Shown here piece by piece: positions 40,259 through 62,706 of a DNA stretch of 64,000 nucleotides; the stretch's first letter is position 1; each line of letters opens with the position of its first letter. This DNA comes from a phage: sequence record PX393110.1. One strand, written 5' to 3'. The translations under genes and the position numbers were made by a program. The notes under the pieces were generated by a model. That model was not told the DNA's origin and ran no database searches. It worked only from the letters and a program-made list of their open reading frames with translations.

Positions 40259-40906
40259 ATGGGCGTTACACTTGACCAGCTGAAGAAGTTCCTCCCAACG
40301 ACTTCAACGGAAGTACTGGAAAAGCTACTGCCTGCCATTAATACTACTATCGAGCGTTACGGTATCAATACCAATCGTCGTCTGCGCTATTTTATGGCGC
40401 AGACTGCTTTTGAAACTCGGGACTACACTAAATTTGTGGAGTCCCTGTATTATACCACTGCGTCTCGTCTGGTAGATGTATGGCCGAGCAGATTTACTCT
40501 TCGTGGCGAGCCTGGGAAGCTTAATGCGACTGCTTATATACGCGATTCAGAGAAATTGGCTAATCAGGTATATGCTAATCGCATGGGTAACGGGAATCCG
40601 GCCAGTGGTGATGGGTACAAGTACATTGGTCGTGGCGCGATGCATCTAACTGGCAAAGCAAACTATCGTGAAGCCTCATTGGATATCTTCGGCGATGACC
40701 GTTTGGTAGAAGACCCAGAGTTAGTCGCGACGGATTTCGAGACGATCATGCTTACTGCAGGATGGTTCTGGGATAAAAATAAATTAAATCAATTAGCAGA
40801 TCAGGACGCATTCACCAAAGTAACCCAGAAGATAAATGGGTCTGCTGCGACCGTACCTGACCGACTGCCTGTACTACGCAGAGCAAATCAGACTTTAACT
40901 CTTTAA
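40259..40906 (+). CDS. endolysin, GH19 chitinase-like lysozyme
   Basis: 215 aa; FMAQTAFETRDY...GDGYKYIGRGAMHLTGKANY motif. Confidence 0.7.
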   Translation: MGVTLDQLKKFLPTTSTEVLEKLLPAINTTIERYGINTNRRLRYFMAQTAFETRDYTKFVESLYYTTASRLVDVWPSRFTLRGEPGKLNATAYIRDSEKLANQVYANRMGNGNPASGDGYKYIGRGAMHLTGKANYREASLDIFGDDRLVEDPELVATDFETIMLTAGWFWDKNKLNQLADQDAFTKVTQKINGSAATVPDRLPVLRRANQTLTL

Positions 40907-42267: not shown

Positions 42268-42821
42268 CAGATACTCCGTACAAATAATTCCCGGAATGGT
42301 TTAATTACCTTCTCTACTTCAGCATCCATCTTGGTTTCTGACTTACCAGATAAGATATTGAAAAGAGATACACGAACGGCCTCCCGAACCGACTCTTGAG
42401 TCATATCGACCTTGCCTTCATACGCTGAATAAATAGTCTGGCAGTTGCTAAGTAAAAATACTAGCTCTACCGCCTGATGAACGACTTCTTGATACTGCTG
42501 GTCGCGCTCGATAGCTTCGTTCATCTTAGGAGTGTGTGGATTATCGCAGATTTCCCAGGTCTTTACGATATCAGGATTAGCGAATACATCGGACGATTTA
42601 ATACCTATCGACACTTTAAGTAGACGGTGCTTAATACCGTTATTGGTAATAGTCAGATCGTGCATAGCATGACGAAGAGCTTGCTCGAATTCAAAGCTAG
42701 ACTCTCGGACTACTATATCATAGCTCTCAGCCTGGTCGATAGGACGGACTGTTAGAACGAGTACTGCTGTACCTCCCAACATACCGATTAGGTTGTCTAT
42801 ATCCATATTACTCAAAGTCAT
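42267..42821 (-). CDS. hypothetical protein
   Basis: 184 aa ORF, overlapping start/stop with neighbours. Confidence 0.45.
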   Translation of the reverse strand: MTLSNMDIDNLIGMLGGTAVLVLTVRPIDQAESYDIVVRESSFEFEQALRHAMHDLTITNNGIKHRLLKVSIGIKSSDVFANPDIVKTWEICDNPHTPKMNEAIERDQQYQEVVHQAVELVFLLSNCQTIYSAYEGKVDMTQESVREAVRVSLFNILSGKSETKMDAEVEKVIKPFRELFVRSI

Positions 42822-43180
42822 TTCTTTACCTTCTTATAGAACTTGTGGTCGCCTATTCTGGCTGTCATTCTATAGCCCTTCCAGTTAGGCCTAACCTTTA
42901 CATTATGAAAGTGAGTAGCCCCGAATGTGGGATCTTCACTGTATTTAACTCTTGCCGCAATATGAATAGCAGATGCCTTAGATTTAGGATCTTTCATATT
43001 CTGGTAAGAGATGTGACGGTACCACGGAAAGGTATTCCTGTTTTTAACTACCTTACATGGGCTTATACCGTATTTCTTCGCTCGGTTGAGTACCACGTGG
43101 GCTACAGCTAACTGCCCACGTTCCGACTCTCCCCTGGCCTCATAGTAGACGACCATAGCTACGCAATCGGCAGAAGTCAT
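42818..43180 (-). CDS. SleB-like cell wall hydrolase
   Basis: VVYYEARGESERGQLAVAHVVLNR matches hydrolase_2/SleB signature. Confidence 0.6.
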   Translation of the reverse strand: MTSADCVAMVVYYEARGESERGQLAVAHVVLNRAKKYGISPCKVVKNRNTFPWYRHISYQNMKDPKSKASAIHIAARVKYSEDPTFGATHFHNVKVRPNWKGYRMTARIGDHKFYKKVKK

Positions 43181-43601: not shown

Positions 43602-44225
43602 TTAGAAACGATCGCGACCTATGATTGGTGCGACTGGTTTAAAGTCAGTCTGGTCGTAACCTTTGTAAAGGTCGTAGCCACCACCAGCAACCTCAGTAAA
43701 GTAAATCTGACCGATGCGCATGTTAGAACGCAGTCGGATAGTGTTAGGGCTTAGGTTAACAATCTCTAGAGTAAATGCTCCCTTGAATCCAAAGTCCCCG
43801 AAACCTGCACTGACATGGCTCAGTATTCCCAGACGACCCATAGTGCTGCGACCGTCGTAATGCTGACAGAATGCCACACCACGGTCTACAGTGCTGTTAC
43901 GGTATCGTGGGTCATAATGCTCGAACCACTTCTCAGGCAACATGGTAGTACAGTCGATACGTTCAGATGCTGAGCCTAAGATGAACTCCCCAGGTTTAAG
44001 ATCGTAGTATAGTGCCTCTACCTCGCGATACTCCGGAAGAGTACATGGTTTATAGGGATCTACTACATGGCCATCAGGCATCTTTTGAGGAACCAGGAAG
44101 AACGGAGCTAAGCGTACATCTACACTATTCTGTCCGATTCGTGGTTCCTGATTGTCCAGATAACTGTGATAGGTCCATAATCCTTGAGTAATTGCCTGCT
44201 CAATATAAGATTTACCAAGGATCAT
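43602..44225 (-). CDS. dCTP deaminase-like protein (dUTPase superfamily)
   Basis: 207 aa; size and motif layout of Dcd family. Confidence 0.55.
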   Translation of the reverse strand: MILGKSYIEQAITQGLWTYHSYLDNQEPRIGQNSVDVRLAPFFLVPQKMPDGHVVDPYKPCTLPEYREVEALYYDLKPGEFILGSASERIDCTTMLPEKWFEHYDPRYRNSTVDRGVAFCQHYDGRSTMGRLGILSHVSAGFGDFGFKGAFTLEIVNLSPNTIRLRSNMRIGQIYFTEVAGGGYDLYKGYDQTDFKPVAPIIGRDRF

Positions 44226-44427
44226 TACGGATGCTCCAGCATGTTCTTAACAGATTCTTCATCTGTAGCTTCTACAGTAGCATTATTATTATTATTATTA
44301 TTATTATTCTTGAATGTGCCCCAGATATCATCAGACACGATCATAGTCTTGGGAGCTAAGTGCTCCGAACGAATAACCGTAATCTGGTTACGATTAAGAT
44401 CCTTAGTTAGTTGCTCAATATCCATCA
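44225..44427 (-). CDS. small protein with poly-Asn tract
   Basis: ATG at 44425-44427 with GAGGA RBS; contains 9 consecutive Asn from (ATT)9. Confidence 0.4.
44282..44308. repeat. (ATT)9 trinucleotide microsatellite
   Basis: 27 nt perfect ATT repeat read directly. Confidence 0.95.
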
Positions 44428-44455
44428 TATTCCTCGGTTCTATGGTAGAATAACA

Positions 44456-44479
44456 TTGACCTCTCCGCAAAGAGGTCAA
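44456..44479 (-). terminator. hairpin downstream of dUTPase gene
   Basis: 9-bp stem TTGACCTCT/AGAGGTCAA; U-tract weak. Confidence 0.35.
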
Positions 44480-44510
44480 TAGTAATTACCGTAGTCTAAC
44501 TACCCCAGGA

Positions 44511-44981
44511 TTACTTAATCCCGGAATGGCCAAACCCACCGTCGCCACGTTCAGAAACATCAGAGAATTTATCCACAAGCTGGAGCTCTGGATGGATAAC
44601 GGGAAGAAACACCATTTGAGCGATACGGTCGCCGTGGTTAATAACGAAAGATTCGTTACTACGGTTCCACACAGACACCATCAGTTCTCCTTGATAGCCG
44701 GAGTCGATAAGACCAACCAAGTTACCCAGTACGATGCCATTTTTATGGCCGAGGCCGCTGCGGGGAAGAATCACAGAAGCGATGTTCGGATCGCCGATGT
44801 TGATCGCTAGACCGGTAGGGACCAGGATAGTTTCGCCAGGATTTACAGCGATTTTATCGATTTCGTCAGTCTTAATCATCGCACGAAGATCAAGACCAGC
44901 ATCACCAGCTTTAGCGTATTTCGGTAACTCCAGAGAGTCGTCCCAGTTAATAGTTTTCTTTACTTGAACTACGGTCATCAT
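44511..44981 (-). CDS. dut: dUTP diphosphatase
   Basis: 156 aa; [39 protein letters not shown] motifs of trimeric dUTPases. Confidence 0.85.
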
Positions 44982-45358
44982 GATGCCCTTTTGTACTGTT
45001 TAATGAATGCTGCGCAGATGCTGGTGAAGAGGTGATCTTTGACTCGATGCTCTTCCGGCAACCGTGAATATGGAACCATACACGGGTGCGTCTTAGCTGC
45101 GAGATCTTTGATTTCTCCATACTTCCAGCCCTGCTCCTTTTTAGTTTTAACCCAGAATTCATGGGACTCTTCTGGGCTGATACGGTTATTGTGTAAGCAG
45201 TTATACGCTCCATCAATAGCCGACTGTTTTATTTCATCGGATGTTGCTTCCCAGCTTAATTGGGTGAAGTCTCCGATAGAATGGCAGTATGCACGATTAG
45301 CTTCGTGACACACCTTAGCCACCATCAATACGATTTCTTCTCGGGTCATATGAGACAT
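44978..45358 (-). CDS. RyR-domain protein
   Basis: [20 protein letters not shown]...[20 protein letters not shown] resembles RyR repeat. Confidence 0.5.
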
Positions 45359-45582
45359 TATTTACCCTTGTGACGTTGCTTATTAACCTTACGGCCTTTA
45401 GCCTTCTTAGCCGCACGCTTTAATGCAGATGCTGTAGTAGTCTTAGGGCAGCTTACCTTGGTACAGGCGCGACGGAATCCGTCATAGCCTTTAGCAGACA
45501 CTGCTGGGGTGGGCCACATATGACCTAATCCAGCCAGAACCATACCGATACCGCTTAACAAACCAATACGACGTGATTGCAT
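45358..45582 (-). CDS. small membrane-anchored basic protein
   Basis: 74 aa; N-terminal hydrophobic helix, Lys/Arg-rich C-terminus. Confidence 0.45.
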   Translation of the reverse strand: MQSRRIGLLSGIGMVLAGLGHMWPTPAVSAKGYDGFRRACTKVSCPKTTTASALKRAAKKAKGRKVNKQRHKGK

Positions 45583-45602: not shown

Positions 45603-45634
45603 TTTAACAGCCTTTGGAGGCTACGAAAGAGCGG
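45603..45634 (-). promoter_or_regulatory. conserved promoter-like motif
   Basis: TTTAACAGCCTTTGGAGGCTACGAAAGAGCGG, about 20 nt upstream of start at 45582. Confidence 0.5.
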
Positions 45635-45944
45635 AATCTTCGTCAGGTAATGAATTAACGAAGTCAGCTATAACTTGAGCATGACATGGTAACGGTAAGC
45701 AGGAGCACCCTAAAGTCTTACCCTTAAGAGTCCGTAAGTAGGAGATGCTTATGTGGCCATCTTTTACTTGCTGGTGGAACCATAGTCTGTATTTCGCGAT
45801 GGCTAATGTTCGGGAACCTACGTTAATAGCGTTAGGTAAATCTTTATGGCTCCACTTATTCCCGAATATAGTACCTCTCCCAACATATAAATCGTAGTTA
45901 GGATTGGTACGTATATTAACCACCCGACAAAGCTTACTCTCCAT
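45621..45944 (-). CDS. DUF4326-like protein
   Basis: YVGRG...GNKW...GKTLGCSCLPLPCHAQV layout recalled from DUF4326. Confidence 0.5.
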   Translation of the reverse strand: MESKLCRVVNIRTNPNYDLYVGRGTIFGNKWSHKDLPNAINVGSRTLAIAKYRLWFHQQVKDGHISISYLRTLKGKTLGCSCLPLPCHAQVIADFVNSLPDEDSALS

Positions 45945-46647
45945 CTTCCACAGAGTTACCCTGCATAGCAATCATGGTATTCACCTCGTGCTCCAGATCC
46001 TGTAACTCTTTTACACGATTGATGGTGCGAACCCAAGTCTTAGCTTCCAGCATCGCATCGAACAATGCATGGTGATCAGACATAGACTCGTGCTGGCTAC
46101 TCAGTTCTTCTTTAATCATGCGACGATCATCGAATGAGATCAGCTGCAGACTAGCCAGAGTGCGGTAATCTCGATTCATCCAGTGTAGGAACGGGGTCTT
46201 ACGTCCTTTAGCCTTAAAGTACCAATCCAGGAATCCCTGGTCGAACTCTGGTGCGTTACCGATGAAGTTCAACATCTGGCAACCAGGATCCTGTAGTACC
46301 TTAGCTACGTACTCTTCGATGATATCCAGAGCTTCGTCAACAGATACTGGATTAGCATATGCAGCATCACGGACGGGTTTCGGGAGAGTGTTGAGCCATT
46401 CAACTACGTTAGGGTCAGACTTCATACCCAGAGCCAGCGACTCTTCTCGATCAATAGTGAAGTAGACGTGGGAGTAGTGATCAGGACCAACCGTCACCAT
46501 ACCTACAGATAGAACTACCCCAGGCTCTTTAAAATCGAGATACTCGGTCTCGATGTCAATTGCGCAGTGGTAGGAGTCGTGATATGACAGGAATCGGTTA
46601 AACAGTTTATTCGGAGCCAGATGGTGTGGCATCATCTTAGTAGACAT
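45934..46647 (-). CDS. 3'-5' exonuclease, DEDDh (DnaQ/RNase T-like)
   Basis: AIDIETE (Exo I), FDQGFL (Exo II), HHALFDA (Exo III) motifs. Confidence 0.7.
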   Translation of the reverse strand: MSTKMMPHHLAPNKLFNRFLSYHDSYHCAIDIETEYLDFKEPGVVLSVGMVTVGPDHYSHVYFTIDREESLALGMKSDPNVVEWLNTLPKPVRDAAYANPVSVDEALDIIEEYVAKVLQDPGCQMLNFIGNAPEFDQGFLDWYFKAKGRKTPFLHWMNRDYRTLASLQLISFDDRRMIKEELSSQHESMSDHHALFDAMLEAKTWVRTINRVKELQDLEHEVNTMIAMQGNSVEDGE

Positions 46648-46677
46648 CGGTTATCCTTATCAGTTGAGGTGCAACAA

Positions 46678-46708
46678 TTTAACAGCCTTTCGAGGGTAAG
46701 AAACGGCG
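46678..46708 (-). promoter_or_regulatory. conserved promoter-like motif (degenerate copy)
   Basis: TTTAACAGCCTTTCGAGGGTAAGAAACGGCGG upstream of exonuclease gene. Confidence 0.4.
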
Positions 46709-46711
46709 GAA

Positions 46712-47065
46712 TTAATCCTTATCCACAGTATACCCTAGACTGGTTAATAATGTATCTACTTCAACGGCATCATATACTGGAGATGCCTTACCTATTGTGA
46801 TATGATCTGTGTAATGAATTTTAGGGGTAGTTACTTTACGCTCTCTACCCGATAGGAATTTTACTGCATCCTCAACATTACTATTATGATCACCAGTCCA
46901 GCCATCATCAATAGCCATCTGAATAATACGATGATGCATAGCTCGGTTTTCAGCATTCTCTACTCTAGCCTTACTCAGATTAGCCTTAGTAGTGTCTAAT
47001 TCCTGTCGTACTGAGTTATATCGATCTTCCCAGCGTCCGTCATGAATCCCAGTATCTTCAGCCAT
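46712..47065 (-). CDS. hypothetical protein
   Basis: internal ATG at 47063-47065; 117 aa. Confidence 0.4.
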   Translation of the reverse strand: MAEDTGIHDGRWEDRYNSVRQELDTTKANLSKARVENAENRAMHHRIIQMAIDDGWTGDHNSNVEDAVKFLSGRERKVTTPKIHYTDHITIGKASPVYDAVEVDTLLTSLGYTVDKD

Positions 47066-47297
47066 TACGTGCCTTCTTAAGATGCCATTGTGCGACCCAC
47101 CAGAATGTAGTTCCTGGTGCAGAGTAGTTATTGAAGACCCCACCATTACTAAGCAGACTCTTAGCTGCTCGACGATGACCACGACGCTTCTTGCGAGGAT
47201 CGAGTTTAACTGATTGAGCTACTTGCTCATAGGTATCATAACCCACGATCTGCATGCTCCCAACCGCATTAGTTACTGCTTGGATAGGTTGTTCCAT
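47058..47297 (-). CDS. hypothetical basic protein
   Basis: ATG at 47295-47297 with GGGAG RBS; 79 aa. Confidence 0.4.
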   Translation of the reverse strand: MEQPIQAVTNAVGSMQIVGYDTYEQVAQSVKLDPRKKRRGHRRAAKSLLSNGGVFNNYSAPGTTFWWVAQWHLKKARNG

Positions 47298-47312
47298 AAT
47301 TACTCCCAACAT

Positions 47313-47344
47313 TAAATAAAAATAGCGCTCCCTAAAGAGCGCTA
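47313..47344 (-). terminator. rho-independent terminator after NADAR gene
   Basis: 8-bp stem TAGCGCTC/GAGCGCTA followed (minus sense) by TTTTTATTT. Confidence 0.7.
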
Positions 47345-47351
47345 AGATAGG

Positions 47352-48011
47352 TTAGTCTTCTTCGCCCCACTCATCGTCGTAGGCCTGCTTAGGGGTCTTA
47401 CCTTCATCGTAATCATCCCGCCAGGCTTCCGCATCAGCAGCGCTACCGCCACGAGACTGAGCGTATTGGTGCAGCAGTTTATGCCACTCCGCAAACGATC
47501 CTGTCTCCTTGGTCATTTGTTCCATAACTAACTCCTCCCGAAGTTTCATCAGTAATCGTCCGAGCATATTAATACCAGTGAGGACGGACTTGTACTCCTC
47601 ACGAGTCATACCCCAGAAGGAATCTCCGTGGGTATTTCCTTCGACCAGCTCCTTAGGCCAAGTATCGGTCAATTTTTGAGCTAGCTCCCCACCTTTCGCG
47701 AATTTAATCCGGAGTAGGTGTTCCATCACATCTACTCTCTGTTCCTTCCACGATTCAGTAATGGGCAGCTTACGTCCATATCTCTTGGCCTCACCAGGAG
47801 TATGAAGTCTAGCTATGATAAGACGATGGGCTAGTGATGGAGACTTAGATGCTTGATAGGCATGCTCCACACTAGGGTAAGTAAGGGAGGGAAGAGTCTC
47901 GTTCCCGTAAGGATTCTTATCCTCAATAGGAACAGGATAAAAGTTAGATAGGAATCGGTACTCTCCGATAAACTCCAGAATAGAGTTCTTGTCGGTCCAG
48001 ATCCGCATCAT
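47352..48011 (-). CDS. NADAR (YbiA-like) domain protein, putative ADP-ribosyl N-glycosidase
   Basis: YRFLSNFYP, VEHAYQASK, KRYGRK...WKEQRVDVMEHLLRIKF, LVEGN..D.FWG colinear with E. coli YbiA. Confidence 0.75.
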   Translation of the reverse strand: MMRIWTDKNSILEFIGEYRFLSNFYPVPIEDKNPYGNETLPSLTYPSVEHAYQASKSPSLAHRLIIARLHTPGEAKRYGRKLPITESWKEQRVDVMEHLLRIKFAKGGELAQKLTDTWPKELVEGNTHGDSFWGMTREEYKSVLTGINMLGRLLMKLREELVMEQMTKETGSFAEWHKLLHQYAQSRGGSAADAEAWRDDYDEGKTPKQAYDDEWGEED

Positions 48012-55896: not shown

Positions 55897-56526
55897 TTAT
55901 TTAGGGATCCATGAATACTTTAAATTCCATGGCCTAGGGGTACCATGGAAACAAACTACTGCAACCCCATTAGGCACCGACCCGTTTCCGGTAGACCTGT
56001 GACAGTAATGCTCCTGGTCAGGACCTACTACTGATACCTTGTAGGAACAGAATTTACCTGGGTAGAGATCTTGTATGCGAGGTACTCCATTAAAGAATGG
56101 GCAGATAAACTCCTGATCACCACCTACAGAGTGATTAGCCATGAATCTATCTGGACTAACTATCCAAGCATTCCAGATGCGCTCAGCTAAGATAGGCTCA
56201 ACACGCATCACGCTACTGTTAACCATCCCAGTATGGTACCAGTCTCGGAGAATAGTTGATTCGTCACAGTTCAGCAGGAATGTGATATCGTCGATAATTG
56301 CTGTATCTAAATCGAAGAACACGAATGGCTCCTGGATAGTGAATAGCTCCATCTTACTCCACCAGCCAGGATAATCATGCTTCATAGGTATCCACTCAAC
56401 TCCTTCGATAGGCTCTTTAGAGATACATGCATATCTTGTACCTTCTGGGAGTTGTCTACCTACCCATTTAACGTGATCTTCTGTGAAGTCCTTACCCTTA
56501 CGAAATACCGTAACCACTAGCGACAT
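55897..56526 (-). CDS. putative glycosyltransferase (DxD-containing)
   Basis: 209 aa; FDLDTAIIDD possible DxD motif; in glycosyltransferase cluster. Confidence 0.4.
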   Translation of the reverse strand: MSLVVTVFRKGKDFTEDHVKWVGRQLPEGTRYACISKEPIEGVEWIPMKHDYPGWWSKMELFTIQEPFVFFDLDTAIIDDITFLLNCDESTILRDWYHTGMVNSSVMRVEPILAERIWNAWIVSPDRFMANHSVGGDQEFICPFFNGVPRIQDLYPGKFCSYKVSVVGPDQEHYCHRSTGNGSVPNGVAVVCFHGTPRPWNLKYSWIPK

Positions 56527-57485
56527 TTAGTCTTCTCCATATGTTTAAATCCCTGGATCATGTTCTTAGCCACGTTATCCCAGGTACAATCTTTAACCTT
56601 ATCAGCAATCTTGGTTCTGTTAAGCTTAAGGAGTATTTCGTCCCAGTTTATCTTAGAGCCAACTATGTGATGCTCCACAGATTCCAGACGATCTTTAGGA
56701 ATAAGCCCTTCCTTAGTTACTATCAGAGCTCCGCACCGAGCCGCTTCCAGGACAGTAAGGCCTAACGACTCCTTATGAGTAACTATGAAGATGTCGCAGC
56801 ATCTGATTAATGCAGCGAACTCCTGACTGCTTACTCCTCCACGACGATACTCCTCAACACTTATATTCTCCTCGTCGATAACGCATAATCCATTATCGGT
56901 AAGAGTGTAAGATACGTGAGGAACCGGAATATGCTTAAGGTTCATCATCATGGTTAGGGAGTAATCGAAGTCCGACAGGTCAAATAGCGGATGGTCTACG
57001 AATATCCTAAGTACACCATCCGACATCTTCTCTGGGTAGAATAGCTTATCATCAGCTGCCCACCCTACCTGCCAGTTATTATCCAGATGCCTTTTCAGAC
57101 GACTCGGATTGTCTAAGTACTTATAGGTATCGTCCCGAAGAGTGAAAGTTACGTCTACCTGTTTACAGTCTAGCATCGAACCATCATAGATATGGGTAAC
57201 TAATCCCTTAAAGTGCTTCTTAAGGTATTCTCCTATTTCTAGAGGAATCTGAGTAAACGGACGTACTCCCACATATAAGATATGATCGCACTTCTCTTCC
57301 CGAGCTATTTCTAATACTTGATCAGCATAGACATGAGGATTAACCGAATCGTGGTACTCTGGCCATAATACTAACTCTACTCCATTAGCCTCCAGAGCGC
57401 CTCGGAGATGATATTTCCACATGGTACTGAAGTTAGTTATCTGATGTGAACTACCAGGACAATTTGCTATATACAGTAACTTCAT
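56517..57485 (-). CDS. GT-B fold glycosyltransferase (GT4-like)
   Basis: 322 aa; ESLGLTVLEAARCGALIV matches the E-x7-E motif. Confidence 0.65.
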   Translation of the reverse strand: MKLLYIANCPGSSHQITNFSTMWKYHLRGALEANGVELVLWPEYHDSVNPHVYADQVLEIAREEKCDHILYVGVRPFTQIPLEIGEYLKKHFKGLVTHIYDGSMLDCKQVDVTFTLRDDTYKYLDNPSRLKRHLDNNWQVGWAADDKLFYPEKMSDGVLRIFVDHPLFDLSDFDYSLTMMMNLKHIPVPHVSYTLTDNGLCVIDEENISVEEYRRGGVSSQEFAALIRCCDIFIVTHKESLGLTVLEAARCGALIVTKEGLIPKDRLESVEHHIVGSKINWDEILLKLNRTKIADKVKDCTWDNVAKNMIQGFKHMEKTKCR

Positions 57486-58086
57486 TCACCCATTCCTCAA
57501 CAGTAGTTTTACGAGTCCCACCAATCCCTGATAGCGACTGTATATTTATCTTTTCTGTAGCCGACTTAATTAAAATAGGAAGATGGCTAAGGTTATTTGG
57601 TACCCCACCAGATACTCTTGGTTCTGGGCTACCATCTACCCCAACCAACAAGAGATCAGTGTGACCCATATGATAAGCTAATCCGATCGCCCCATAAGCG
57701 CTATTCCCGGAACTGATTACATCAGGATCCTCAGATAACCCAGGAACTGCTCGCCATCTCCACAGCCACCATAGAGGAGTACCATAGATAGGCTCCTCCC
57801 CACGATGTTCGTCCCGCTTAAGTAAGTGTGCTTTATAACCAGAATATAGATGCATATCTGCTTCGTCCACAGCAAGGTAATAACGAGTACCCATCCTAGG
57901 ATTCTGGATACGGCATAGATTAGCTTGGCTAGGATCCAGAGTAAAGAAGTAATTAGCTCTGGGTAACCACTCTATGGCACCATTAACCGCAAATATCGGT
58001 ATCTCATGTGGAGGAGTGAATCCTCTTGCCGATGGTCCATCTGCTACAATTATGGCAGGTCTTCTATACTTAGCCTCTCGAAGCAT
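57451..58086 (-). CDS. CstII/Maf-like (GT42/DUF115 superfamily) putative glycosyltransferase
   Basis: ADGPSA ... SSGNSAYGAIGLAYHMG ... LLVGVDGS layout; paralog of next gene. Confidence 0.45.
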   Translation of the reverse strand: MLREAKYRRPAIIVADGPSARGFTPPHEIPIFAVNGAIEWLPRANYFFTLDPSQANLCRIQNPRMGTRYYLAVDEADMHLYSGYKAHLLKRDEHRGEEPIYGTPLWWLWRWRAVPGLSEDPDVISSGNSAYGAIGLAYHMGHTDLLLVGVDGSPEPRVSGGVPNNLSHLPILIKSATEKINIQSLSGIGGTRKTTVEEWVNEVTVYSKLSW

Positions 58087-58586
58087 GTTATTTTAGTCCT
58101 TCTGGTACAATTGATTATAGTAATACTATCTGGAAGGTATCTCTGGACCAAGTAATAGTCCTCAATCCATTTAGCAACTGTTTCAAGATCTGGATTAGTT
58201 AACCCACCAGTATGATCTCCATGGAAATGGCTACCATCTGAAATATCACAGTCATAGCCGAGAAGTACTATCTCTTTAGGAGCAAATACGCTGGCCAAGA
58301 AGATAGCTTGAGCGCCCGAGCTATAACAACTATTCAAGTAGAAGAACTGTTTTACATCTGGGTGATTCTCTACAGGAAGATGGCTGTACTTAGAGCATGT
58401 GCTTGGGACATTATTATAATTATGCTCCCACCAGATAGGATCGAATCCATAAACTATATTGGGAGGTCTGGATGAGAACATGGCGTTATTAGCGCTAATA
58501 ACCAAGTCGGACTTACTAGCAAGTAGTAAATAATCCTCCTCGGTTAGAGAAGGACCGCTAGCTACACACATTATTCTCTTTATCAT
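58050..58586 (-). CDS. CstII/Maf-like (GT42/DUF115 superfamily) putative glycosyltransferase
   Basis: ASGPSLTEEDY ... YSSGAQAIFLASVF ... LLGYDCD layout resembles CstII-type sialyltransferase. Confidence 0.5.
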   Translation of the reverse strand: MIKRIMCVASGPSLTEEDYLLLASKSDLVISANNAMFSSRPPNIVYGFDPIWWEHNYNNVPSTCSKYSHLPVENHPDVKQFFYLNSCYSSGAQAIFLASVFAPKEIVLLGYDCDISDGSHFHGDHTGGLTNPDLETVAKWIEDYYLVQRYLPDSITIINCTRRTKITCFERLSIEDLP

Positions 58587-59290
58587 AAGTACTGTCTAAC
58601 CTCTGGGCTAAGGACCGTATCCATAATAGCTGAAGTGCATTCCCCATCAACCCAGTCACCAAGTACTTCAGTAAGTGCTGAGTTAATTGCGGTAGTCATG
58701 TACTCTTTAAGGAGTAATGCCTCTTCGTTAATGTAGTCGGTTACGTCCTTAACGAAAGTAGCTACCGACTCAAAAGCACCATCCAGAGTATCCTTAAGTT
58801 CCTGAGCCTTAACCAGAAGATCTTCGGTATCGTCCAGGCCCAGGAACTCCTCAATGCTGTTAGCTGCTTCCCCAACGGCCTCTGTGACTGTATTCAGTGC
58901 TCGTTGGCCAATACCACCCACGATACCCATCACAGAGTTAAATGGGGTACATGCCGTAGCTACACCGAATTTATCCATGGCTGCTGCATAGTTCTTGGCT
59001 ATGTTAATTCTGGAGTACATGTTCTGTACAGATTCATCACCGTAGGCAACTAGCGTAGAGATGCTGGATAAGTTACCCTCCATAGCTATCTGGGCTGCGT
59101 TGATATAGGCTGGATCTATACCGGCCTTATTAAGAGCTTCTGCCTTAAGTGCCGAAGGATTCTGTAGCTGGCTTAATCCGCTAACTACAGACTGGGTTTT
59201 CTCACCAGCTACAGCGCCTACATCGCTGAGTGGGTTAATAGTACCACGGCCAGCTTGCAGAACCTGGAATACTTTATTCTTATCAACCAT
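58583..59290 (-). CDS. hypothetical protein
   Basis: 235 aa; GGAG RBS; immediately downstream of terminator. Confidence 0.5.
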   Translation of the reverse strand: MVDKNKVFQVLQAGRGTINPLSDVGAVAGEKTQSVVSGLSQLQNPSALKAEALNKAGIDPAYINAAQIAMEGNLSSISTLVAYGDESVQNMYSRINIAKNYAAAMDKFGVATACTPFNSVMGIVGGIGQRALNTVTEAVGEAANSIEEFLGLDDTEDLLVKAQELKDTLDGAFESVATFVKDVTDYINEEALLLKEYMTTAINSALTEVLGDWVDGECTSAIMDTVLSPEVRQYL

Positions 59291-59670: not shown

Positions 59671-59925
59671 TCACTGGTTCAGAACTGCCACGATCTTTTC
59701 TGCCACCTGCTCCAGAGTATCGTCGCTATCATAGTCGAAGTCTGGAATACTGTCTTCCATACCCAGTTCATCTTCAACACGCATGATGATCTCCACTTCA
59801 TCCAGAGAATCTGCACCTAACTGCTCACCGGTAGTAGTTTCAGTTACTTCCAGAATATCAACCATCATGATGTCAGCTACTGCAGATCGCAGTGCATCTT
59901 TAACCTGTTCCAAAGTTACAGACAT
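59671..59925 (-). CDS. acyl carrier protein homolog
   Basis: 84 aa acidic; LGADSLDEVEIIMRVEDELG matches ACP phosphopantetheine-attachment motif; start shares one nt with ligase stop. Confidence 0.75.
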   Translation of the reverse strand: MSVTLEQVKDALRSAVADIMMVDILEVTETTTGEQLGADSLDEVEIIMRVEDELGMEDSIPDFDYDSDDTLEQVAEKIVAVLNQ

Positions 59926-61868
59926 TATTCAGCTCCAATGATTTTACGGAATTGATCTTCGGTAACGATCTTGGTACCCTTAGCTTCGGCAGCCTTAAAC
60001 TTACTGGACTGACTTGGTTTATCGCATACCAGATATTCTGCGTCGCCGATACCGACTTCGACTACGCCATATTTGATCCAGGAGTTAACCAGTTCGCTAC
60101 GAGGCTTACTAAGCTTACCAGTTAAGCAGATCTTGAACTTTCCTTCCGGAAGCGGTTCCTCTACCTTAGAGGCCACCCAGTTCAGAGGAAGATTCAGCAC
60201 CTTCAGGATTACTTCCTGATTCTCTACAATCTTCTTAGCTACGGAACCCATGCATGCATCATAGATTGCCTTACAGATTTTGTAGTCCTCGGTATTGACC
60301 TGGATACCGTCATTAACCATGTCGTGGAAGCTATTGTTACGCAATACACGAATCATCTGGTCGCGAGTCACCGCAGTGGCAATACGCACTCCTGTTGCAT
60401 AACCAAGGCCATCCGTCCAGGTACAGGTCAGCATGTGGTCCATAGAGATAGGACGATCCTTCATATTGAAGAAGGACTGACGAGTAAGCTGGAGAGGGCC
60501 ATCGTACATCTCTACCATACTGAATACTGGATGAGATGGACCAGTCTCGATGATATCGTTCAACATGGCAACATCATCTAGTTTAGCCTGCTCGGCAAAC
60601 TTGTTGATATTCGTCCCACCGAGACCCTTAGGAGCGAAGTCACGGATTATCGTACGAATAACCATCGGGTCTAACTTAGTCTTGATGCGAATATGCACGC
60701 CATCCCAGAAAGTACGTACCCCATCGACGAATTCAGGAATTACCGCAGTGACGGGTTCCACGACTTCTTCGATATGAGGAATTACCTCGTTACGGCGACT
60801 GATCTTGATCTTAGCACCAGGTCCGATACCAGCACTCTTGATGTACTCAGCATTCCATCCGGATGCATAAGTTACATTAACTCCACTCATGTCTACCGTC
60901 TCGAACTCAACAGTAGGCACGACTCGGCCGTAACCACTAACTACCCAGTGTACCTTAACCACGGTAGTGTCATAGAATGCTGATTGGTACTTGATCTTAT
61001 AGTGGACAGTATTCTTGCCCAGCATATTCTCATCCCAGTCAACATTCAGAGATCCCAGAACTACGCCATCCAACAGGTAGTTGCAGACCGGATCTTCGCG
61101 GAACTTAGATGGTGGGTTAGCCACTAGCCAAGTATTGACATAACCAGCAGGAAGAACGAAGTACTTAACTACTTTGAACCCAGCCTTACTTAAACATAGT
61201 AGCAGCTGGTTGTAGTCATCCATCCATGTCTCGTGATCCACATCCTCGTAGAATGCAGTTACCGAATATGCAACCACATCCAGCAGTTCCATTAATGCAG
61301 GATCACTGTATTTAGCCAGAGCAATACCAGAAGCAGCATTACGCTGGTTACTGTACTCGTGGCTGATCCGCTCGAACTTATCATCGGGAATAACGATTTC
61401 GCAGCGGACTTCTTTAATACCTTTAGGAACCTGGCGAGGAAACTCGGCACACTCCAGACTCTTCGTGATGTCCAGACCAGTGACGCCGTCGTGACGAGTT
61501 AAGCCACGGACGAAGTTACCGTCGTAGTCGTAATACAGAACTACCGAGATGCCGTCCAGTTTAGCCGAAGCGACGAATCCCTTAACTTCTTCGTGACCAT
61601 GGAGGAAGTTAAATCCCTCTTCCACAGCACCGATCTTAACCTGGTCAAGACCACCCACGAATGAACCATGTGGGCACTTAGCCAGATGTTCAGCAGCTTC
61701 GGTTACTCCCCAGCCTGGGGTAGTGAGGAGTGGGTTAGTAGGATCCAGCTCAGCTAATTTCTCGGTAAGAGCATCGAACTCTTCGTCCGTAATAATGGGC
61801 TGGTCACCATTATAATATGCATTAGCCGCATTCTTAATTTGCTCTATCAGAGCAGCGACTTTTTCCAT
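59925..61868 (-). CDS. ligA: NAD-dependent DNA ligase
   Basis: 647 aa; KLDG adenylation motif in context colinear with E. coli LigA; C-terminal BRCT-like region. Confidence 0.85.
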   Translation of the reverse strand: MEKVAALIEQIKNAANAYYNGDQPIITDEEFDALTEKLAELDPTNPLLTTPGWGVTEAAEHLAKCPHGSFVGGLDQVKIGAVEEGFNFLHGHEEVKGFVASAKLDGISVVLYYDYDGNFVRGLTRHDGVTGLDITKSLECAEFPRQVPKGIKEVRCEIVIPDDKFERISHEYSNQRNAASGIALAKYSDPALMELLDVVAYSVTAFYEDVDHETWMDDYNQLLLCLSKAGFKVVKYFVLPAGYVNTWLVANPPSKFREDPVCNYLLDGVVLGSLNVDWDENMLGKNTVHYKIKYQSAFYDTTVVKVHWVVSGYGRVVPTVEFETVDMSGVNVTYASGWNAEYIKSAGIGPGAKIKISRRNEVIPHIEEVVEPVTAVIPEFVDGVRTFWDGVHIRIKTKLDPMVIRTIIRDFAPKGLGGTNINKFAEQAKLDDVAMLNDIIETGPSHPVFSMVEMYDGPLQLTRQSFFNMKDRPISMDHMLTCTWTDGLGYATGVRIATAVTRDQMIRVLRNNSFHDMVNDGIQVNTEDYKICKAIYDACMGSVAKKIVENQEVILKVLNLPLNWVASKVEEPLPEGKFKICLTGKLSKPRSELVNSWIKYGVVEVGIGDAEYLVCDKPSQSSKFKAAEAKGTKIVTEDQFRKIIGAE

Positions 61869-61932: not shown

Positions 61933-62706
61933 TTAGCGATTCTCAGGTTCTACGTATTCCAGACCAAGCAGCTGATACAGTTCTTCCTCAGAGGAATTAG
62001 TATCCACACGTTCACCGGTCTCTACATTAAACAGGCCATACTCATTAAGAGTCATGCCCATACGCTTAGCCACCGAACGCATGTGTACGTTATTCTGCAT
62101 TGATCCTGTGGAGTGAAGTAAGCACGCGTTCCAGGATTCTTCTGGACAGATCTTGATATCAAATTCCATACCAGTATTAGTATGGACGAATCGGATCTTT
62201 TTATCCTTACCATACAGTTCCTCCATACCGGTAAGACGGAAAGCATGGCGAACTATTTCTGGAGGGAAGGTAGTAAGCAGGTCTACGTCGCGAATCCACA
62301 TCTTACCACGACGTACCGAACCAGCTGTAGAGATACGACCAGAGCTACCCTCGGCAAGACTCAGTTTGGTCACTTCCGTTAGGTAGGACTCAATGATATC
62401 CTTAACCTCAGTGGAGTAAGCAACACGACCTTCTGGGACTTTAGACATAAGTTCAATGAACTTAGGAGTCATGGTGCCATACTTAGCGAAGGCTTCTAAC
62501 TCGCTAGCAATCCCAGCACCTATCCATGGGATTGTAGTGAAGTTCATCTGGGAAGTTACACCATACGGGTAATCATCCAAGGAACGGGCTGCACGATCAT
62601 ACGCCCTAACATGCCACACGGAATCACCATGGGCTTTCTTAAGCTCGGCTATTTGGCGAAGGTGGCGAACAGCATCAATACGGAAGGTCATCCTAACAGG
62701 CTCCAA
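61933..62706 (-). CDS. DNA polymerase X family (Pol beta-like) nucleotidyltransferase
   Basis: GSVRRGKMWIRDVDLL nucleotidyltransferase motif; C-terminal region colinear with Pol beta thumb. Confidence 0.7.
   Translation of the reverse strand: MEPVRMTFRIDAVRHLRQIAELKKAHGDSVWHVRAYDRAARSLDDYPYGVTSQMNFTTIPWIGAGIASELEAFAKYGTMTPKFIELMSKVPEGRVAYSTEVKDIIESYLTEVTKLSLAEGSSGRISTAGSVRRGKMWIRDVDLLTTFPPEIVRHAFRLTGMEELYGKDKKIRFVHTNTGMEFDIKICPEESWNACLLHSTGSMQNNVHMRSVAKRMGMTLNEYGLFNVETGERVDTNSSEEELYQLLGLEYVEPENR

Follow-up and report, generated by a model that had tools for sequence, protein, structure and literature searches.

The gene analysed here lies on the minus strand of a phage DNA stretch of 64,000 nucleotides (sequence record PX393110.1), referred to below as the window. 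It is an ATG-to-TGA open reading frame of 126 codons at 44978..45358 (the TGA stop included at the 44978 end) and encodes a protein of 126 amino acids. Codons 63–108 (45035..45172, minus strand) form the segment to which the Pfam RyR profile matches; in the predicted structure they span helix 3 and the hairpin and reach into the beginning of helix 4. Located within this segment are the putative ligand-contact residues H66, W69, K84, H91, K107 and D108, as mapped onto the phage proteins RyR Tad and RyDEP. Codons 1–62 (45173..45358, minus strand) make up helices 1 and 2, which lie outside the Pfam match and are conserved in phage homologues.

Upstream, the RyR gene is preceded on the same strand by an open reading frame of 74 amino acids (ORF74; 45358..45582), whose stop codon shares one base with the RyR start codon in the sequence TAATG (45356..45360). 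Downstream, it is followed by a minus-strand dUTPase gene (44511..44981; Pfam dUTPase PF00692, E = 1.9e-35; canonical trimeric type), the start codon of which overlaps the RyR stop codon as ATGA at 44978..44981. These two overlaps imply that ORF74, the RyR gene and the dUTPase gene are packed for translational coupling. A conserved hairpin was observed after the dUTPase gene.

In the annotation of Escherichia phage EP_H11, the RyR gene is a 'hypothetical protein' starting at M12, 33 nt later than the ATG given above, and in the record of Escherichia phage vB_EcoM_IME392 it is left unannotated. M1 is favoured as the probable true start because of the TAATG coupling, an AAGGG Shine-Dalgarno-like element shortly upstream of it and the alignment of helix 1 with the homologues; a synonymous change in codon 2 was also counted in support of it.

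At a larger scale, the window is organised in two converging arms, with structural and lysis genes running rightward from about 1.4 to 42 kb and a leftward arm running from 64 to 42.3 kb. The leftward arm, which holds the RyR gene, contains nucleotide-metabolism and replication genes; it encodes a NAD+-dependent DNA ligase (59925..61868), a PolX-like polymerase and a glycosyltransferase. Within 3 kb upstream of the RyR gene lie, on the minus strand, a NADAR gene (47352..48011), a Rv2179c-like 3′-5′ exonuclease gene and then a DUF4326 gene, followed by ORF74. Beyond the dUTPase gene, the arm continues with a small ORF (44225..44479), a dCTP-deaminase-like gene and a cell-wall hydrolase gene. 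Judged by this gene content, an early or middle expression class is plausible for the RyR gene; promoter-like and terminator-like matches in scans occurred at the frequency of shuffled sequence.

Family assignment, predicted fold and selection

A search with the Pfam RyR profile (PF02026) gave a match of 49.3 bits (E = 5.8e-13) over residues 63–108, well above the gathering threshold of 27.4. The first-pass annotation had proposed a RyR-domain protein at this locus together with a profile search as a check, and the assignment was confirmed. The RyR motif that it had quoted for the C-terminal half was likewise recovered, with residues 78–108 matching 16 of the 19 specified positions and departing from it at three (M instead of L, H instead of E, R instead of K). 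When all PDB sequences were searched with phmmer, the matches were exclusively ryanodine-receptor repeat proteins, the best being a chimera of Bacteroides thetaiotaomicron protein and human RyR1 Repeat12 (E = 2.4e-26), followed by RyR1-3 (E of about 1e-21 to 1e-23), the B. thetaiotaomicron 'putative ryanodine receptor' (E of about 1e-12) and the crystal structure 35tm of RyDEP from mycobacteriophage DyoEdafos (E = 6.6e-12). At the sequence level, the resemblance to RyR repeats is far beyond chance.

Homologues of the protein were found by tblastn in 295 phage records from many hosts. The matching PHROGs (5154, 11782 and 18865) are each of 'unknown function', and NCBIfam had no model for the protein. 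An alignment of 116 sequences was assembled from the query and 115 metagenomic homologues, every one of which carries PF02026. In this alignment H66, W69, K84, H91, K107 and D108 are conserved in 114–116 of the sequences. Conservation extends to the N-terminal half (codons 1–62), where a 10-residue motif is kept in phage homologues and H18 and N21 are invariant across the alignment.

Structure prediction, which the first-pass annotation had also put forward as a check, agreed with the family assignment. The AlphaFold2 model built from the 116-sequence alignment reached a mean pLDDT of 96.6 and a pTM of 0.88, with helices at residues 6–27, 41–56, 62–75 and 102–117 and a hairpin-like segment at about 78–91. 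Foldseek comparison of this model with the PDB returned RyR-family entries throughout the top 50 (probability 0.91–1.00, and 1.00 for the first 38), mostly Repeat12 domains of human RyR3 and RyR1, the B. thetaiotaomicron protein or chimeras of it, the remainder being a few RyR Repeat34 (phosphorylation) domains. The predicted fold is thus that of Repeat12, consisting of four helices plus a hairpin.

The likeness to the animal receptors is confined to this unit. The Repeat12 domain (RY12) of RyR1-3 is homologous in sequence and fold, and its H/W/H/D ligand residues are conserved in the phage protein; in the receptors these residues bind ADP, ATP and dantrolene (PMC13642953, PMC12627627, PMC13232231). 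In contrast, the receptors carry a covalent tandem of two repeats within a channel subunit of about 5000 amino acids, whereas the phage gene encodes one unit of 126 amino acids, which presumably dimerises. Channel, SPRY and transmembrane parts were absent from the 126-residue protein, a single soluble domain with one repeat unit, and a role in calcium signalling is therefore not expected. The cellular B. thetaiotaomicron protein (PDB 3NRT, 6UAG), to which no function is assigned in the PDB titles, is about 100 amino acids long and aligns with about 68 residues of the phage protein, which differs from it by its extra conserved N-terminal helices.

Selection on the gene was assessed in the coliphage lineage of the window, which has genomes of about 111–116 kb and is rare, with two records in the phage collection searched. 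The window was 94.7% identical over 4 kb to IME392 and 91.9% identical over 4 kb to EP_H11. In the RyR frame, all 17 codon changes relative to EP_H11 were synonymous (0 non-synonymous), and the five changes relative to IME392 comprised four synonymous ones and the conservative replacement I60V. We conclude from this pattern that the RyR gene is translated and under strong purifying selection. Constraint was tighter on it than on the dUTPase gene, with 14 synonymous to 3 non-synonymous changes, or on the DUF4326 gene, with 23 to 5, and its presence in the RyR frame implies that the overlapping ORFs in other frames are spurious. ORF74 is fast evolving, with 12 non-synonymous and 6 synonymous codon changes relative to IME392; its product is hydrophobic at the N-terminus, where it has an SRR motif, and very basic at the C-terminus, and Pfam and NCBIfam searches with it were without match.

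Relationship to anti-Thoeris proteins of phages

Thoeris, a TIR-based immune system, is widespread among bacteria. According to two preprints of mid-2026, phage proteins with a RyR or Repeat12 domain act as anti-Thoeris factors, either hydrolysing or sequestering the signal molecules 2′cADPR as well as 3′cADPR (PMC13232231; 10.64898/2026.06.04.730250). The first-pass annotation described the role of the domain in phages as not established, a statement that these reports supersede. The family has been known since then, and the 126-residue protein is an uncharacterised new member of it.

The first of these proteins, gp78 or 'RyDEP' of Mycobacterium phage DyoEdafos, was found in a biochemical screen and hydrolyses 2′/3′cADPR to ADPR (PMC13232231, preprint, May 2026). 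Its crystal structure at 1.65 Å revealed a homodimer formed via helices 1 and 4, with the ligand held by H75, W78, H100 and D117, and its gene lies inside a NARP1 NAD+-resynthesis operon (PMC13232231). When eight homologues from across the viral PF02026 tree (H1–H8) were assayed in the same study, binding of the signals was seen with six and cleavage with none; H4 from a Ruegeria phage and H7 from a Pectobacterium phage were sponges with nanomolar Kd and rescued phages from Thoeris in vivo (PMC13232231). Independently, gp68 of Pectobacterium phage CB1 was identified as 'RyR Tad' (10.64898/2026.06.04.730250, preprint, June 2026). For blocking type I Thoeris, its C-terminal Repeat12-like domain is sufficient. 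RyR Tad binds 3′cADPR with a Kd of 43 nM and releases it intact, and several NAD-derived molecules, including 2′cADPR and canonical cADPR, are bound with a Kd below 1 µM. RyR Tad likewise dimerises through helices 1 and 4, and the double exchanges H129A/W132A, K147A/H154A and K170A/D171A weakened binding about 100-fold (10.64898/2026.06.04.730250). We found CB1 gp68 and H7 to be identical at 181 of 183 positions, which means that two laboratories characterised essentially one protein as a sponge.

Every ligand-contact residue defined in these two solved phage homologues is present, by alignment, in the 126-residue protein. H129, W132, K147, H154, K170 and D171 of RyR Tad correspond to H66, W69, K84, H91, K107 and D108 (six of six kept), and H75, W78, H100 and D117 of RyDEP correspond to H66, W69, H91 and D108, the numbering being shifted by 9 throughout. 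RyR Tad (vB_PatP_CB1 gp68) and the window protein share the Repeat12-like four-helix domain and a location in a replication or early-type region. They differ in that the N-terminus of gp68 carries an additional beta-sheet domain of about 70–85 amino acids, dispensable for activity (10.64898/2026.06.04.730250), which is absent here; such an N-terminal domain is carried by H6, H7 and H8, whereas the window protein consists of the Repeat12-like domain alone. They also differ in locus: the gp68 gene is flanked by the genes for primase and SSB in an N4-like 'anti-signalling hotspot', and the RyR gene of the window lies between a small ORF and the dUTPase gene in a coliphage unrelated to CB1.

Taken together, these data suggest that the 126-residue protein is a homodimeric, single-domain cADPR sponge countering Thoeris, a reading to which we assign a probability of roughly 0.65. 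The broader statement that it binds and neutralises cADPR-type signals, be it as a sponge or as an enzyme, is the more probable of the two.

The choice between sponge and enzyme could not be based on the catalytic dyad. H66 and D108 are present in the window protein, but equally so in non-catalytic sponges, and the attempt to separate sponges from glycosidases by this dyad failed, since neither H nor D varies in either kind of protein. A RyDEP-type glycosidase that cleaves cADPR signals would fit the exact DyoEdafos spacing of the dyad residues, W69 and H91, and the NADAR and DUF4326 genes upstream, with a predicted role in ADP-ribose processing (PMC9503650), could in principle dispose of the resulting ADPR. 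However, homologues that bind without cleaving keep these residues too, and the eight non-cleaving homologues had been sampled from major branches of the family (PMC13232231).

Overall identity was determined to the nine tested proteins. A full-length alignment to H1 and H4–H8 was obtained. The 126-residue protein was 50% identical to H6 from a Salmonella Kuttervirus, 47% to H8 from an Erwinia phage and 42% to H7/gp68 from Pectobacterium phage (44% by BLASTP over 110 residues, E = 1e-36), followed by H5 from a Pseudomonas phage (38%), H1 from an Arthrobacter phage (37%), H4 from the Ruegeria phage (36%), H3 from a Ralstonia phage (33%) and H2 from a Stenotrophomonas phage (26%). Identity to the RyDEP glycosidase was 26% in the multiple alignment and 32% by local BLASTP, as compared with 42–50% to the closest non-catalytic homologues. 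RyDEP (gp78; PDB 35tm), an inverting cADPR glycosidase, shares the Pfam family and the four-helix protomer with the window protein. Yet H18, N21 and K73, which are invariant in the clade of the latter, and the nearly invariant C93 are replaced in RyDEP by Y, A, Y and D, respectively. In neighbour-joining trees with the nine tested proteins, the window protein grouped with RyDEP in 2% of bootstraps and with H6/H7/H8 in 37%, a weakly resolved position; this is enough to say that by sequence it falls outside a grouping with the enzyme, and the tree supports no more than that.

The NARP1 operon that surrounds RyDEP is absent from the window. Searches of the window and of the complete EP_H11 genome by tblastn, with DyoEdafos Adps and Namat as queries, yielded nothing at E < 1, and a NARP1 NAD+-resynthesis partner was consequently rejected. 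Stoichiometric sequestration is favoured over hydrolysis on the grounds of the 26–32% identity to the enzyme, the 2% of bootstraps, the differing clade residues and the missing NARP1 partners, and a glycosidase is considered unlikely.

Binding could also be directed at another immune or metabolic nucleotide, for instance canonical cADPR, His-ADPR, N7-cADPR or a further product of TIR proteins, in a defence beyond the tested Thoeris systems of types I and VI. The breadth of NAD-derived ligands bound by RyR Tad at a Kd below 1 µM (10.64898/2026.06.04.730250) would allow for this, Thoeris types are numerous and differ in their signals (10.64898/2025.12.03.692087), and the pocket-lining positions beyond the six core residues differ from those of gp68, in keeping with an overall identity of 44%. 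On the other hand, all residues shown to contact 3′cADPR are conserved and nothing points elsewhere, so that a different ligand appears rather improbable.

Genomic context of the domain

Synteny was analysed by tblastn with ten neighbours from the window, and Adps and Namat from DyoEdafos, as queries against 80 IMG/VR loci, namely the carriers of the closest RyR homologues, with 6 kb taken on either side. Within these 6 kb, neither the dUTPase, the dCTP-deaminase-like gene, the exonuclease nor NARP1 was found at any of the 80 loci (0 each), and NADAR and DUF4326 were found at one locus each. The Kuttervirus domain is part of a fusion protein of 290 amino acids whose gene adjoins a vWFA gene; in CB1, the domain gene lies between homologues of N4 gp43 and gp44; and in three metagenomic contigs it lies amid small unannotated ORFs. 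A functional link between the RyR protein and the dUTPase was rejected on the basis of the 0/80 loci and the other neighbours seen in Kuttervirus, N4-like phages and the contigs. Of the observation in the first-pass annotation that the gene sits immediately upstream of the dUTPase gene with overlapping stop and start codons, the arrangement itself (ATGA, 44981..44978) was verified, but a functional meaning was not upheld. Judged by synteny, the adjacency to dUTPase is lineage-specific and of no detectable functional meaning. The patchy, single-gene and context-free spread of the domain seems to be as expected for a mobile counter-defence gene.

These results also bear on the idea that the protein is an adenine-nucleotide sensor which responds to ADP, AMP or ATP and modulates the dUTPase, the dCTP-deaminase-like enzyme or the nucleotide pool, with no role in defence. 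RyR1 RY12 binds ADP and ATP, and viral homologues have tentatively been suggested to be nucleotide sensors (PMC13642953); translational coupling to the dUTPase gene and the proximity of the dCTP-deaminase-like gene would be compatible with this. However, PMC13642953 bases its suggestion solely on AF3 predictions, the tested phage homologues bind cADPR isomers at nanomolar affinity and counter Thoeris in vivo, and the dUTPase linkage is not shared by the related loci. We regard a sensor of this kind as very unlikely.

The proximity of NADAR and DUF4326 raises a further scenario, since DUF4326 (rhodanese-phosphatase-like, with ADPr phosphates as its predicted substrates) and NADAR are predicted ADPr-processing domains (PMC9503650). 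The RyR protein might then be the entry point to a NARP1-independent disposal of ADP-ribose signals, although we would place little trust in such a pathway. In it, the RyR protein would open cADPR isomers or hand them over, and NADAR and DUF4326 would degrade the product, a division of labour that seems just as doubtful. In a variant of this scenario, the coupling to dUTPase would reflect a physical complex. Occurrence of NADAR and DUF4326 at only one of the 80 loci each means that the scenario is unsupported by synteny, and the same scarcity speaks against their serving a RyDEP-type glycosidase. If true, the disposal scenario would constitute a new multi-enzyme module against TIR signalling.

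Proposed function and significance

For the preferred reading as a cADPR sponge, we infer a mechanism that includes dimerisation, the identity of the ligand, action as a sponge or as an enzyme, and when the protein is expressed. The RyR protein would homodimerise back to back by way of helices 1 and 4, and in each protomer helices 2 and 3 would border a pocket together with the hairpin. Within it, W69 would stack on the adenine, H91 and K84 would hold the phosphates, and H66, K107 and D108 would hold the terminal ribose. The pocket would thus capture the ribose-ribose-linked signals 3′cADPR and 2′cADPR that are made by the TIR protein ThsB upon infection, most likely by stoichiometric sequestration ('sponge') rather than by hydrolysis. 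With capture taking place in early infection, the Thoeris effector would stay off, NAD+ would be preserved and the phage could replicate. Preservation of NAD+ may be relevant to the phage itself, as its own DNA ligase is NAD+-dependent. As to the host, type VI Thoeris occurs in E. coli strains (10.64898/2025.12.03.692087) and is reported to use 2′cADPR as its signal (PMC13232231). The proposed logic is like that of Tad1, Tad2 and Sequestin, small phage proteins that sequester gcADPR signals; these are separate families, set apart by their descriptions in the literature (10.64898/2026.06.04.730250).

To a specialist in the field, the assignment will be unsurprising, and the 126-residue protein represents a clean additional test case rather than a new question. 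As a bare domain of 126 amino acids, it would be a convenient minimal construct for studying how Repeat12 recognises NAD-derived nucleotides and what distinguishes a sponge from a glycosidase, on a fold that is common to the phage protein and the human ryanodine receptors. Phage proteins that neutralise the cyclic ADP-ribose signals of Thoeris decide on the success of infection and thus bear on phage therapy and on host-range prediction. With the gene described here, the RyDEP/RyR Tad family is extended to a rare coliphage lineage with genomes of about 111–116 kb.

Genes upstream of the RyR gene

In the two close relatives, the counterpart of the gene for the predicted anti-Thoeris RyR-domain protein (44978..45358, minus strand) was found without any annotation in Escherichia phage vB_EcoM_IME392 (MH719082.1, locus L001, 7961..8341) and labelled 'hypothetical protein' in Escherichia phage EP_H11 (OP688485.1, locus L002, 5034..5381), where the gene is annotated to begin 11 codons after its probable start.

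An open reading frame of 74 aa (45358..45582, minus strand) shows translational coupling with the RyR gene; a family search with its product returned no match. Its N-terminus is hydrophobic and carries an SRR motif, and its C-terminus is very basic. The SRR-bearing N-terminus looks like a twin-arginine or signal sequence. The ORF is fast-evolving, with 12 non-synonymous and 6 synonymous codon changes relative to IME392 and 7 non-synonymous and 3 synonymous changes relative to EP_H11.

The stretch directly upstream of the RyR gene (45621..48011) holds minus-strand genes for a DUF4326 protein (45621..45971), an Rv2179c-like 3'-5' exonuclease (45934..46647) and a NADAR protein (47352..48011). Processing of ADP-ribose derivatives has been predicted for viral NADAR and DUF4326 proteins (PMC9503650), and these three genes together with the RyR gene may form an ADPr-centred counter-defence cluster. 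Among the 80 related IMG/VR viral loci with the closest RyR homologues, inspected over 6 kb on either side, the linkage of the three genes to the RyR gene was not conserved.

Hairpin and repeat downstream of the dUTPase gene

Directly after the dUTPase stop codon, a hairpin with a 12-bp stem was located (44454..44481, minus strand), whose stem is kept in IME392 and EP_H11, with variation confined to the loop. Lacking a clear T-run, it may be an RNA-processing element or a weak terminator.

A small minus-strand ORF (44225..44479) between the dUTPase gene and a dCTP-deaminase-like gene contains a perfect (ATT)9 trinucleotide repeat (44282..44308), which reads AAT on the coding strand and translates into a poly-Asn run. 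This run is an in-frame expansion, 5-6 codons longer than in IME392 and EP_H11, neither of which has a run of at least 4 copies at this site. Slippage during replication possibly produced the expansion in this small accessory protein.

Lysis, transcription and DNA metabolism genes

The window encodes two cell-wall-degrading enzymes. The rightward arm closes with a gene for a glycoside hydrolase 19 endolysin (40259..40906, plus strand), the leftward arm with one for a SleB-type Hydrolase_2 protein (42818..43180, minus strand).

Outside the window, the EP_H11 annotation (L008, 29676..31244) lists a gyrase B subunit and a 'DNA-directed RNA polymerase beta' subunit' of only fragment size. Phages of the ~111-kb lineage may thus possess a multisubunit RNA polymerase of their own.

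Within 56517..59290 (minus strand), a strong DUF7217 match (E 1.8e-77) is grouped with a glycosyltransferase-like ORF and two ORFs that resemble MptE weakly. Together with a thymidylate-synthase-like gene in the EP_H11 annotation, these genes may be a sign of DNA or nucleotide modification.

Also on the minus strand, the phage encodes a PolX-like polymerase (61933..62706) and an NAD+-dependent DNA ligase (59925..61868), for which the adenylation, OB and Nlig-Ia domains passed the threshold and BRCT gave a weak match below it. Because of this ligase, the phage would be sensitive to NAD+ depletion by Thoeris-type effectors.
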